The position numbers and the translations under genes were made by a program. This document shows positions 4,587 to 46,028 of a stretch of 64,000 bases of DNA, piece after piece (within the stretch, counting starts at the first letter, position 1; each line of letters begins with the position of its first letter). A model generated the notes under the pieces. That model did no database searches. It saw only the letters and a program-made list of their open reading frames with translations, and was not told where the DNA came from. Source of the stretch: Octopus vulgaris (taxonomy: Eukaryota); the NCBI GenBank assembly GCA_951406725.2, contig OX597820.1:17050001-17114000 (forward strand). The letters are read 5' to 3'.

Positions 4587-4780
4587 CGCCATGACAGATC
4601 GCTAGCCACTACACATTCTTTATTTTCTCTCCTTGTTTCTTTCTGTGTTCCTTTCTGTGGAAGAGCGTAGGCTCGAAACGTTAAAGATTTTTTCACTTCC
4701 TGAGCGTTATACTAATACATCTGCTTGTTGTCTACACAACCTGTCTTCGTCTTTTCTTTCTTTGTGAATTCTCTCTCTAT
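4587..4780 (+). mobile_element. Short HHR-bearing repeat (CTGTNGA family)
   Basis: Homologous to about 22405-22490, 25376-25560 and 45905-46090; abuts (TA)/(CA)n. Confidence 0.7.
4651..4686 (+). ncRNA. Minimal hammerhead-like motif, A6U core variant
   Basis: CTTT|CTGTGGA|A|GAGC-gtag-GCTC|GAAAC GTT|AAAG. Confidence 0.6.
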
Positions 4781-4910
4781 ATATATACACACACACACAC
4801 ACACACACACACACACACACACACACACACACACACACACACACACACACACACACACACACACACACACACACACACACACACACACACACACACATAT
4901 ATATATATAT

Positions 4911-5213
4911 AGGGTAAAGACCCCCTTCGGTCATGAATGACCATGGGATTGCACCTAGAAAGTTACCCTCCTAGACACAAGTCCGAGCAAGGTTGTTTAT
5001 GGAAGACCAGCAGTCGCCCATGCATACCAGCCTCCTCTCTCCACGCCACCAGTGTTATCCAAGGGAAAGACAAAGGCAGATACAGCTTGGCACCAGTGAC
5101 GTAACAACTCATTTCTACAGCTGAGTGAACTGGACCAACGTGAAATAAAGTGCTTTGCTCAAGAACACAACACGCAGCCCGGTCCGGGATTCGTGCTCAC
5201 AACCTCACGATCG
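4911..5213 (-). mobile_element. tRNA-derived SINE family C
   Basis: Reverse-complement homologue of 24789-25105, which has A/B-box-like motifs. Confidence 0.75.
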
Positions 5214-5629
5214 TATATATATACGATATATATATATATATATATATATATATATATATATATATATATATATATATATATATATATATATATATATATA
5301 TATATATATATATATATATATATATATATATATATATATCAGTAATAATATAGGGTGAAATTAATTAATTTGGAATAATCATTAATTTCACCAAGTAGAT
5401 TTCGGCATGTAAAAGCCTCACTCGAGGAAAGTTTAAGTAATACTAAGTAATTAAGGGTTTAGCAACGATTTGCCTCACCACACACCGAATTTAGAAATAG
5501 CAGTCAAAGAGTTATAGCTATTCTTTCTACTAGAAGGGAGATCTCAGTAAAACCGCAGCACTTGAAAGGCAAACACAGACAGGCAAGAGAGAAGGAAATG
5601 ACGGCAATCTATCATACAATTTTAAGTCA

Positions 5630-5720
5630 CCTACGGACGTACGTTTCGAAATTAAGTTTTAGGAAAGCATAAGAATTAGATAATTATGACTTACCTAACT
5701 TCTTTTCTCATCAGCGTAGG
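5630..5720 (-). ncRNA. Type I hammerhead ribozyme (antisense twin)
   Basis: Exact reverse complement of 6098-6188. Confidence 0.8.
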
Positions 5721-6097
5721 ACACTACAATTATGAATAATTGTATATTAAATTTCGAGATACTAGAAGGCATCATCTCAACTCAGTATCAGAGCGAGCTA
5801 AAACCGTTACCAGTATCACCAAATTCAAAGTGAATGAAAGTTTGTATCACCAATGATTATTCCAAATTAATTAATTTCACCCTATATTATTACTGATAAC
5901 CATATTTCATCCCAGTAAATGACCGCAGCATCTTGTCTTGGCTACACGCTGGTGGGAAGGGGTTGGTGATACAAACTTTCATTCACATTTTGAATTTGGT
6001 GATACTGGTAACGGTTTTAGCTCGCTCTGATACTGAGTTGAGATGATGCCTTCTAGTATCTCGAAATTTAATATACAATTATTCATAATTGTAGTGT

Positions 6098-6188
6098 CCT
6101 ACGCTGATGAGAAAAGAAGTTAGGTAAGTCATAATTATCTAATTCTTATGCTTTCCTAAAACTTAATTTCGAAACGTACGTCCGTAGG
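6098..6188 (+). ncRNA. Type I hammerhead ribozyme, canonical core
   Basis: CCTACG|CTGATGA|GAAA...TTTC|GAAAC-gtac-GTC|CGTAGG; predicted cleavage 3' of C6182. Confidence 0.8.
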
Positions 6189-6410
6189 TGACTTAAAATT
6201 GTATGATAGATTGCCGTCATTTCCTTCTCTCTTGCCTGTCTGTGTTTGCCTTTCAAGTGCTGCGGTTTTACTGAGATCTCCCTTTTAGTAGAAAGAATAG
6301 CTATAACTCTTTGACTGCTATTTCTAAATTCGGTGTGTGGTGAGGCAAATCGTTGCTATATATATATATATATATATATATATATATATATATATATATA
6401 TATATACATA

Positions 6411-42187: not shown

Positions 42188-42362
42188 TTCAGGTCACTGC
42201 CTGAATCGAACTCAGAATCTTGGAATTAATAGCCCACGCTCTTAACCACTACTTAACCGCGCTCTTAACCACTAATTGCCCGTGGGCAATTATGGAGTAG
42301 TGGTTACGAGCACGAGCTACTAACCCCAAGATTCCGAGTTCAATTCCAAGCAGTGACCTGAA
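42188..42362. mobile_element. Back-to-back (diverging) inverted tRNA-like heads inside (ATT)n/(AAT)n
   Basis: Centre AATTGCCC-gt-GGGCAATT 42274-42291; A-box TGGAGTAGTGG, B-box GAGTTCAATTCC 42336-42347. Confidence 0.75.
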
Positions 42363-42374
42363 TAATAATAATAA

Positions 42375-42920
42375 CAGTACCAGACAGTGGCTCTCATGGC
42401 TTCTGATTTTAACTGATTGGAAGTGTTACCATGTACATTGTTTTGTCTTGGTATAAAAGATGAGCTACAGCAAATATTCTGCTCAATACCACAGATTTGT
42501 TTGTCAGTTGTTTAACCTTAAGCAGTTGAGCATGTCTTTTAGTGGCTGACGATATGTGCATCTCTGATCACGAGCAGAAGTAGTGGGGGAGCATCATAGC
42601 CATGTGCTGAAAGGAATTCTTAGAGGTTTGGATAATTCATCTTTGGAAACAAGGGTGGTTCTTTCAACATCCTTAAACAATCCTTATTCAGGGACCTTTT
42701 GAGCGGGATGGGCTACACGACCAGAAGAAAATTCTAAATGGGCCTCACCTGCAAGGTCATGCACTGTTTATCTTGATATGAGATAACCATGTCGTGCACA
42801 TAAGGTTGTGATGCATGTGCCTAGTGTACCCTTATCAGATGGGTAGTCATGATGGGTATACTGGGCTTCGTATATTTTACCCCAGTGTCACTTTGATAGC
42901 ATTCACTACTCTCTCACTCA
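42375..42920 (+). mobile_element. (AAT)n-inserted non-LTR element 3' portion (Dong/R4-like targeting, inferred)
   Basis: Flanked by (AAT)n on both sides; its start is repeated on minus at ~965-1005, also abutting (AAT)n. Confidence 0.5.
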
Positions 42921-42979
42921 ATAATAATAATAATAATAATAATAATAATAATAATAATAATAATAATAATAATAATAAA

Positions 42980-43135
42980 ACAACAATAACGACAACGTCG
43001 AAAAATACCTTAGGAATGAGAACCCAGTATCGAAATTTCCCCAAGATACCTGATGAAGGCTGGAGTTGTGTTAACAACAAACAAGATGAGGACAAATATC
43101 CGTCAAATGTAAATAATGTAAACAATGTACATATA
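42980..43135 (+). mobile_element. Tail of the tRNA-head/HHR element, ribozyme internally deleted
   Basis: CCAAGATACCTGATGAAGGCTGGAG/TTGTGTTAACAAC, homologous to 18840-18960. Confidence 0.7.
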
Positions 43136-45992
43136 AATACGTATTATATTTTACATATAGTGTACATACATACATACATACATACATGCATACATACATA
43201 CACAAACACACACACATACACACACACACATATGCACACACACACACACACATATATATATAAGAATTCTTTTGCGTAATAAGATAAAAGAACCAAGGTT
43301 GTATAGATATTATAGTGTTTATAGATAGAAGGTCTTACAGCTGTTTCTAGGATATCAATTAATAATATCCCTTCATGTGTGTATATATATATATATATAT
43401 ATATATATATATATATATATATATATATATATATATATATACATCGTTATCATCGTTTAATGTCATTTTGCCTCCCCTCCATGGGCTGCAAGACTCGGCA
43501 GGAACCAATGAGCCAGAGGAATGCGTCGAACTCCAGTGTCTACTTTGATATGGTTTCTTACGACTGGAGGCTTTTCCTAACACCAACAACTTTACAGAGT
43601 GTACTGGTTGCTTTTTACGTACCATCAACACGAGTGAAGTCACTCGTAAAACAAGATAATACTCGCAAGACTATACAAATTGCAGATCTTCCATCTGTGC
43701 TTTATTCCAGATATATCAATATTTTACATGTGTATGTAAAAGATATATTCTTATTAAAAGAAAATATATGCCGTTTCGCATATACATCAGTAATTTTGAC
43801 ATATAAATTTCAGATTCATATTATTTTTGCAGTTTTGTTGACTCGTGAGATCTCAGGCAAAAATTCTCATTAATACAGAATAATTTTTTCGCCATTTCCA
43901 AGAAATATGTTCCCGGGATTTTGTCAAAATAAATGATAAATGTGAAATGTAGAGAGAGAGAAAAATGTTATATCCAAGCCAAGGTTGTACAGGTAATAAG
44001 CAAACGTATTTGTTTTAACATTCCAAACATTTTCTAACGATAAATAAATTGTATACAAAATTTCAATTGAATTTTTGCATTTATATGTATCTTCTATGTC
44101 TGTATATGTGAAGTTTTCTATCTATCTATCTATCTATCTATCTATCTATCTATCTATCTATCTATCTATCTATCTATCTATCTATCTATCTATCTATCTA
44201 TCTATCTATCTATAGAATTGTATATGCATATATATATTTAAATATATGTATGCATATGTATATAAACATATGAATATATATAAATATATATGAATATATA
44301 TACATATATATTTATATATAAATATATATACGTATATATTTATCTATATTTACATATATATATACGTATATATATATACACATATATATTTATATATATA
44401 TACATATATATTATATATATATGTGTGTGTATATATATATATGTATACATACATATATATATATATATATATGTATATGTGTGTGCATATTAATAAATAA
44501 ATTTATATGTATATATGTATATATATATATGTGCATATTAATAAATAAATTTATATGTATATATGTATGCATATATATATATAATATATTTATATATATA
44601 TATGTATATATATATATATATATAAATTTATATGTATACACACACATATATATATATAAGTATATTTATAAATTATGTGCAGGATTTATTAGAATCACGG
44701 TATTTTGAAAATAATGACACCGAGTTAGGATCGAGATATCCGCGTATATACCTTATGCACATATATCAATGCATATACGAAATGCGCTAATATTTACATA
44801 TACATGCACATGAACAAGTCAAAATATATCAGTAATATCCTCTTTTACTTATTGCCGAAATGAGAGAGTCAACAAGCATTCCATATCATGATATTTTTTT
44901 GTGAACCGTATTTTAAAATTTAAATTTTATATTTTAAGTTTTTAAATCACCTGACATAAAAATAAACGGATATTTTCATTATGTAATCGGTTTATCCATC
45001 AATAAAAACGCGTCTGAAACCAGTGTAGTAAACCTTAACCCATTTATGTGTGTACGCACACACACACACAATACGTCAGCGCCATCTATTGCTAAACTAA
45101 ATAATGAACTTTCTCATTGTTTGCGTTATTGCTGTTATTTCTTTAATTTTGAATTAAGACTGCCTTCATTTTATCAAATTTAATAATACTGCGTTTGACT
45201 AGGAAAAGTATAGTTATAATCTTGCGCATGGGGAAGTCAAAATCTGGACGTGCGAGAAGAATTCCGACTGCGGATTCGGAACCAGCATCCTCGATTTAGT
45301 GTAAAACATCTACGTTTCCCCCAGGGGCAAAATCTTTGTTGTCCAATGTTATAAAGGTGGTTAATGCTTAATTTAAAAGCCAAAATGTCCAGGTACAATC
45401 GTCACTAAAGTGACTAAGGGTGCAGACTAGCACCAATAATTTTCATTTTACCATTTTACCGAATCAGTCACCGATTCCTATGGTATTTTCTATAAACTGA
45501 CAAGGCAAGTTCAATTTAACCCTAGGCAACAGCGTAAGTATCACTGATGTCACTGAGTTCACTCCGAAATCATCCATAATTTGATACTCCTCGCTTGCTG
45601 TAGGGAGGTTGTTCTCTATTGTCAGTCAATAGATAAATGCTTTGCCCATGGCTAAGAATTGCTTTGACTCTTATTTCTAGCAACGCTGGTGCTGGTGAAA
45701 CCAATGCAAATTAACGTGAGGTATGTTTAATATTCTTTCACTAGCCCGCTTTCAGCCACGTCTATATTTATTTGGGGCTTTTTACAATTTTTTGGAGGTC
45801 TCGGCACTTGAAGCATGCTGGAGATAGGTCGTTTTCGCACTTGCTCCATTAATATAATTATATTCATATGCATATTATTATTAATTATATATATATATAT
45901 ATATAGGGAGAGTTTAAAAAAAAAAAAGACGAGAACAGGTGGTATACAAAACAAACAGATGTATTAGTATAACGCTCAGGAATAGAAAAAGT

Positions 45993-46028
45993 CTTTTACG
46001 TTTCGAGCCTACGCTCTTCTACAGAAAG
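45993..46028 (-). ncRNA. Minimal hammerhead-like motif, CTGTAGA variant
   Basis: CTTT|CTGTAGA|A|GAGC-gtag-GCTC|GAAAC GTA|AAAG. Confidence 0.6.

Follow-up and report, generated by a model that had tools for sequence, protein, structure and literature searches.

Can a hammerhead motif with U in place of A6 be a working ribozyme, or has only its shape been retained? The question is raised by a stretch of 64,000 nucleotides of Octopus vulgaris DNA (GenBank assembly GCA_951406725.2, contig OX597820.1, positions 17,050,001 to 17,114,000), which we analyzed as a whole and refer to as the window. It is AT-rich animal DNA loaded with microsatellites. Four copies of a repeat in the window carry the 24-nt motif CTGT-N-GAAGAGCGTAGGCTCGAAA, in which the fifth base, position 7 of the hammerhead core (N7), is the sole difference (G, T, T and A in copies 1 to 4) and the base before it, position 6, is U in all four. 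An original prediction, made from the letters of the window, had listed four such copies with U replacing A6. All four are indeed present, at coordinates a few bases away from those it gave (C3 positions are listed in the table). Searching the window for these 24 nt, with position 7 left as N, returned exactly these four matches, even with three mismatches allowed, and 100 dinucleotide shuffles of the window contained none.

The motif belongs to a parent repeat of about 185 nt, of which the four copies are parts, 81–84% alike over their length. Copy 2 carries A instead of G16.2 and two changes in the 3' strand of helix I, and copy 3 has C15.2>U and one change in helix I. At 24189–24305 (minus strand), a weak profile match (E 0.002, with a high composition bias) might come from an ancient, degraded relative of the repeat; its position-6 column holds A, and it is too decayed to trust.

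On their own, four copies are suggestive at most. For the family as a whole, we used the contigs of four of 24 public runs, one per organism label (four labels, three studies), placed on copy 1 (4615–4745) at a likeness of at least 80%. The repeat is very abundant, with 14,827, 19,398, 6,568 and 9,612 contigs placed (6,568–19,398 per run). The reference of the pile-up was copy 1, which carries G7; positions 4645–4710 were used, no change being listed nearer the ends. The table of alternative letters is complete at a cut-off of 2%, and its 27 rows for run X1 equal the run's own tally. The shares of summed contig depth for G/A/T/C at N7 were 31/26/25/18, 33/27/24/16, 21/29/35/15 and 21/30/34/15%, an entropy of 1.93–1.97 of 2 bits in all four runs. 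At position 6, U6>C reached 2.0, 1.8, 1.1 and 0.8%, and U6>A and U6>G each stayed below 2% in 4 of 4 runs. Per-position conservation thus bears out what had been predicted from four copies, a nearly four-way N7 next to a U6 with alternatives at no more than about 2%. We conclude that the U6 hammerhead-shaped family is real and holds family-wide in four runs. Since A6 is treated as invariant in hammerhead descriptors, a U6 family of such size is invisible to them.

No alternative at 2% was seen at C3, U4, G5, A9, the extra A that follows A9, A13, A14, A15.1 or U16.1, and G8>A ranged from 0.9 to 2.2% across runs. Position 7 had been taken for the one free position, which it is not: H17 is also free in the hammerhead consensus and varies here (A 46–65%, U the rest, G and C each below 2%). 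It is the only position besides N7 with a second allele of at least 10% within helix 2.4–1.6. Positions 4649 and 4650 have minor alleles of 14–35%, and four more polymorphic sites lie downstream (4692, 4695, 4696 and 4701). A minor allele of at least 10% in at least two runs was found at 0 of 34 core or helix positions and at 8 of the 32 positions that are free or flanking (Fisher p=0.002), and the same comparison without N7 gave 0 of 34 versus 7 of 31 (p=0.004). The helix I bulge was assigned after the table had been seen; however the helix is read, 4649–4650 fall outside its contiguous 4 bp. Because most free positions are without common variants, the family has few diagnostic sites.

The four even alleles at N7 exceed the rate at the other free sites, which hints at a mutational hot spot; the alternative to such a hot spot is that N7 is old and was saturated among many masters. 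CpG decay was rejected as the cause of this variation, since G and A together make up 51–59% of N7, while the true CpG sites of the motif change by 1–10% and G8>A stays at about 2%.

Apart from position 6, the motif has the anatomy of the minimal type I hammerheads of Penelope-like elements (PLEs). Their consensus reads 'U-rich NNN CUGANGAH G..C GAAAN palindrome UH NNN AU-rich' (PMC4209133 Fig. S3; here and below, published sources are cited for those of their sections that were available). The U6 motif agrees with it at every core position except 6, so that six of the seven positions C3 U4 G5 A6 N7 G8 A9 conform. Like the PLE motifs (PMC4209133), it has a U-rich 5' flank, a short helix I, C3-U4-G5-x-N7-G8-A9 plus an extra base, G10.1-C11.1, GAAA, a palindromic C15.2-G16.2 without helix III, U16.1-H17 and an AU-rich 3' flank, and its copies are mostly solitary members of a large family. 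Unlike them, it has U6 across the family, all four bases near-equal at N7 and, here, no link to a reverse transcriptase (RT). The extra A, helix II (GAGC/GCUC, closed by G10.1-C11.1) and GAAA are found in 4 of 4 window copies, with no alternative above 4% in the pile-up. The palindromic CG at 15.2–16.2 is kept at 92–96% per site, the rest being CpG decay (2 of 4 window copies have such a change), U16.1 is invariant and H17 is A or U. In helix I, for which 3–5 bp are expected, the strands CUUU and AAAG are complementary and nearly invariant (G1.4 92–94%), and two of the four window copies have them intact.

A strict descriptor with position 6 left free matched copies 1 and 4 (two of four) and nothing in 100 shuffled windows; it is no census, as copies 2 and 3 escape it, and so do the two canonical-core motifs found in the window (18849 and 25123, described below). 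The Rfam covariance models gave no hammerhead match for copy 4, nor for the canonical-core minimal motif at 18849, and because the latter is also unmatched, these models do not cover minimal motifs. Among the matches listed for an Rfam scan of the whole window, those to microRNAs were driven by microsatellites. A shifted register, U3-N4-G5-A6-A7-G8-A9, would keep A6; it was rejected on inspection, as it breaks helices I and II and gives U3-G8. The folds had also suggested that U6 might serve as the lock of an inhibitory hairpin formed with the U-rich tract upstream. This was not supported: with A6, the core mispaired to a similar or greater extent in most of the 16 paired settings per temperature.

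Table. Coordinates of the U6 repeats, their motifs and the hammerhead parts of copy 1 in the window.
Feature	Position	Strand	Remarks
Copy 1 repeat	4594..4779	+	~185 nt; passes into (TA)n/(CA)n at its 3' end
Copy 1 24-nt motif	4655-4678	+	C3 4655, U6 4658, N7 4659 = G
Copy 1 hammerhead motif	4647..4688	+	sequence, descriptor match, per-position shares
Copy 1 helix I, 5' strand CUUU	4651-54	+	extendable past 2-nt bulge (4649-50) to 4647-48
Copy 1 core C3 U4 G5 U6 N7 G8 A9	4655-61	+	followed by extra A at 4662
Copy 1 helix II GAGC/GCUC	4663-66/4671-74	+	GUAG loop
Copy 1 G12-A15.1	4675-78	+	
Copy 1 C15.2 G16.2	4679-80	+	
Copy 1 U16.1	4681	+	
Copy 1 H17	4682	+	U
Copy 1 helix I, 3' strand AAAG	4683-86	+	two more pairs past the bulge, to 4688
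Copy 2 repeat	22409..22484	+	3' side cut short by another repeat; H17 22471 = A
Copy 2 24-nt motif	22444-22467	+	C3 22444, U6 22447, N7 22448 = U
Copy 3 repeat	25376..25559	-	H17 25471 = A; 3' end at TATAT/(GT)n
Copy 3 24-nt motif	25475-25498	-	C3 25498, U6 25495, N7 25494 = U
Inter-repeat stretch, ~290 nt	25560..25851	-	between partial repeat and copy 3; single copy in window
5'-truncated partial repeat	25852..25977	-	partial tandem, ~500 nt upstream of copy 3
Copy 4 repeat	45902..46088	-	H17 45997 = A; 3' end at (TA)n
Copy 4 24-nt motif	46001-46024	-	C3 46024, U6 46021, N7 46020 = A

Other hammerhead-like motifs share the window with the U6 family. A canonical-core minimal hammerhead of another repeat family lies at 18849–18890 (plus strand), with CUGAAGA, an extra A and GAAAC-GUU. 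A partial second copy of that family (43033–43133, plus strand) has U at N7 and is without the 3' half of the motif. Past the 18849 motif, a 22-nt AC-rich stretch (18884–18905) matches the tail of copy 3 and the U6 family in opposite orientation (20/22, E 0.048), probably by chance. A second canonical-core hammerhead (25118–25180, plus strand, core at 25123) has a palindromic helix III of 4 bp and a 1-nt loop, like Hydra-clade motifs (PMC8557442). Its tail ends in the microsatellite of copy 3, so that the two elements stand tail to tail.

Which element carries the U6 motif? All three complete copies end in TA repeats, 95–97 nt past H17. This distance is close to that in the PLE of the anole, where RT starts 85–92 nt after the cut site (26 and 111–118 nt from the start codon, respectively; PMC11167929). 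PLEs are known for partial tandems and for (TA)n targets (PMC8557442), and both a partial-tandem pseudo-long terminal repeat (25376–25977) and insertion into TA-rich microsatellites (3 of 3 complete copies) are found here. In the partial repeat, the clean match starts at 25971, one base past the predicted cut, with a mismatched profile extension to 25977. Copies of the Anolis Poseidon element (PAc) likewise keep an uncut motif about 90 nt before the 3' end, in AT-rich DNA (PMC11167929). In contrast to the U6 family, the core of PAc is canonical and was tested in vitro, and its open reading frame (ORF) starts in helix II, where the U6 family is without a start codon. The U6 repeat is therefore likely to be the end repeat of a Penelope-like retroelement, an origin inferred from its anatomy, as no ORF could be linked to it.

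Two points speak against this origin. The boundary of the partial tandem is one case, fuzzy by about 6 nt, and no RT or endonuclease ORF lies next to any window copy, protein searches being empty or spurious. Searches with two frames of copy 1 found no relatives (0 of 8 and 0 of 2 candidates), and tblastn of five PLE-type proteins on the window matched none of the copies, nor the inter-repeat stretch. This stretch had no protein relative either; its frame gave four matches, all to internally repetitive proteins, which we took as spurious. A C-terminal remnant of a PLE RT-endonuclease does lie at 12004–12475 (minus strand), frameshifted and with a CxxxxCxxC linker. It is 87% identical to P0001 and 70% to P0003 (RVT_1 and GIY-YIG matches) and is unlinked to the U6 family. 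The animal non-LTR retrozymes (PMC7229834; bioRxiv 10.64898/2026.07.22.740005) resemble the family in being non-coding, hammerhead-bearing and likely PLE-derived, with one partial-tandem unit of about 500 nt here. They differ in forming tandem arrays of about 170–400 nt with canonical type I motifs, whereas the U6 copies are dispersed and minimal, and the single tandem in the window has one complete motif. A DNA pattern of the motif matched one locus in the metagenomes scanned, a chance match in GC-rich bacterial-type DNA, and none in the prokaryote genomes and viral contigs scanned. A 2,877-nt contig that ends at the motif in runs X2 and X9 could be a full-length element or unique flank.

For the motif itself, the original prediction had offered two options, a functional non-canonical core or a structure retained for RT recognition. 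The pattern of variation fits selection on a hammerhead core and so favors the former. The latter is less likely, as RNA of the anole PLE, the one studied in vitro, was still inserted when trimmed to +20, past the 3–9 core, and mutations of the hammerhead's catalytic bases left insertion unchanged (PMC11167929). From its sequence, the U6 motif likely works like a PLE minimal hammerhead, though it fails strict membership at A6. The fuller proposal, that it is a slow, dimer- or protein-assisted predicted ribozyme under selection that cuts after H17, is the most likely of the readings considered, and we regard it as evenly balanced. A further possibility, which we put forward tentatively, is that U6 was fixed in a working hammerhead to act as a brake built into it or as a switch that responds to a cofactor (protein or Mn2+), and was kept through many amplification waves in several species.

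Such a ribozyme could act as follows. Common variation is found at N7, at H17 and at the bases that directly flank the 4-bp helix I, whereas the other bases of C3–G8, A9, G12–A15.1 and the helices are spared. Selection during amplification would accordingly have targeted the catalytic core. Helix III would be formed between two motifs via the ACGU/AACGUU palindrome; pairing of two motifs through the palindrome and help by protein have been published for PLE minimal hammerheads (PMC4209133; review PMC6765202). U6 would lower the cleavage rate, and a slow cut may be tolerated or even favored, because every inserted copy keeps both sides of the downstream motif and so was copied from RNA that was uncut (or re-joined) there. 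In the anole PLE, uncut RNA is the main template and the hammerhead cleaves only with its protein (PMC11167929). An occasional cut at the upstream motif might set the 5' end of the RNA, as the partial tandem upstream of copy 3 suggests.

A pyrimidine in place of A6 has a natural precedent in the A6C hammerhead of phage Bcep176, which can cleave, slowly in Mg2+ and better in Mn2+ (PMC3088659; PMC7151607). Unlike this single phage sequence, A6U is fixed in a high-copy animal family, in a minimal, helix-III-less motif known from sequence alone. The natural core variants described in the available sections of PMC4209133 and PMC3088659 are U3-A8, A6C, insertions and U15.1-A16.1. A natural A6U hammerhead was not found in the literature searched; the 2017 work on small PLE hammerhead variants (Lunse et al., Arkhipova et al.) lay outside this search and may list such variants. 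The accessible supplements of PMC8557442 and PMC13282606 do not contain the U6 motif, and the available sections of PMC11014351, PMC12192606, PMC7229834, PMC13282606, PMC6155905 and bioRxiv 10.64898/2026.07.22.740005 have nothing on A6U.

Several observations weigh against a selected, working U6 ribozyme. The phage A6C ribozyme cuts at less than 0.1/min (PMC3088659), A6C in a second ribozyme reached 3.55e-6/min at 0.3 mM Mg2+ versus 0.18/min with Mn2+ (PMC7151607), and all single mutants of the CUGA turn had low activity in a deep scan (PMC9901934). A6 is present in 56 of 56 published representative PLE minimal hammerheads, a set whose search descriptor required A6 (PMC4209133 Fig. S3). Helix I is without support from covariation or fold energy. 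The monomer fold is not favored (z -0.04 to 0.98), with a helix I probability of at most 0.05 for natural alleles; the fold of the canonical-core motif at 18849 is likewise not favored. In the pile-up, no compensatory change was seen in helix I or II, the helices being simply invariant, and common variants are also absent from 24 of the 32 'free' sites, among them loop II. At the rate of the other free sites, at least three changes at any one of 32 sites have a chance of about 0.07. H17 lends weak support, with C17 below 2% here though common in the published set, where one PLE minimal hammerhead row has G17 (PMC4209133 supplement). Finally, the shares are unphased depths on one copy and not copy counts, placement at 80% or more could miss subfamilies with a different core or stem, and the four runs come from related organisms and are not independent replicates.

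An explanation that was missing from the original prediction is that one A6U event inactivated the ribozyme and the family spread without needing it. The core would then look conserved because few masters were amplified, and position 7 would be a hot spot, for example through slippage. We consider this doubtful, though much is in keeping with it. A direct repeat of 8 nt, TTTCTGTG, lies 12 nt upstream of the core and reaches exactly to position 7; both U6 and G7 could derive from it. It is found, spaced 12 nt and with its second unit covering C3–N7, in copies 1, 3 and 4 (three of four; 4640–4659, plus strand, in copy 1). G7 accounts for 21–33% here versus 2 of 56 in the published set (PMC4209133), and N7, with its four even alleles, is above the rate of the remaining free sites. 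In vitro, ribozymes mutated at position 6 are weak (PMC7151607, PMC9901934), and Naiad PLEs thrive without canonical hammerheads (PMC8557442). Insertion in vitro needs no catalysis, as hammerhead catalytic mutants of the anole PLE left it unchanged (PMC11167929). However, slippage from the upstream repeat would yield G7, not A7 or C7. In addition, the differences between subfamilies spare all 34 core and helix positions and, N7 aside, touch 7 of 31 others (p=0.004, as above), and the second site that varies within the motif is precisely H17. If the U6 motif does not cut, a PLE family would be prospering with a hammerhead-shaped, inactive motif, which would be of modest interest.

It seems improbable that the fold or the DNA sequence was kept for a job other than catalysis, such as protein binding, RT recognition or promoter activity, with the catalytic rate irrelevant. 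As expected of a site that is read by its sequence, loop II and most flanking bases vary as little as the core does. Functions other than cleavage were left open in the available sections of PMC4209133, and the anole element showed no RNA ends at the cut (PMC11167929). On the other hand, the region for protein binding and RT start in the anole element lies downstream, its RNA being inserted without the 3–9 core (PMC11167929), and a binding-only role does not predict freedom exactly at the catalysis-free N7 and H17. Very improbable indeed is that position 7 is the third base of a valine codon, which also holds U6, in an overlapping frame (FLSVEERRLET): the frame exists in 4 of 4 window copies and the ORF of the anole PLE overlaps its hammerhead (PMC11167929), but the other four-fold third positions (4653, 4656 and 4668) have no alternative at 2%, H17=A creates a stop codon in 46–65% of the depth, and the two frames tried had no protein relatives.

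If the U6 motif does work as a hammerhead, CUGHNGA would become the new, wider consensus of natural catalysis, and entire high-copy families of ribozymes in animal genomes would have escaped the standard searches for CUGANGA. A U6 motif that cuts would be a natural, massively replicated test of the role of A6. The family also bears on what PLE hammerheads are selected for, be it cleavage, slow cleavage or something else.

Several further features were seen in the window. Long, near-perfect inverted repeats resembling miniature inverted-repeat transposable elements lie at 57646–57855 and 49040–49256; their scores with microRNA models are below the gathering scores. A CUGAGGA...CCGAAAC string at 29234–29260 (minus strand), present once in the window, could be what is left of a decayed hammerhead. 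We also found remnants of a Mariner/Mos1-type transposase (16502–17053, minus strand) and of a SPIN-type zinc finger (36634–37086, plus strand).

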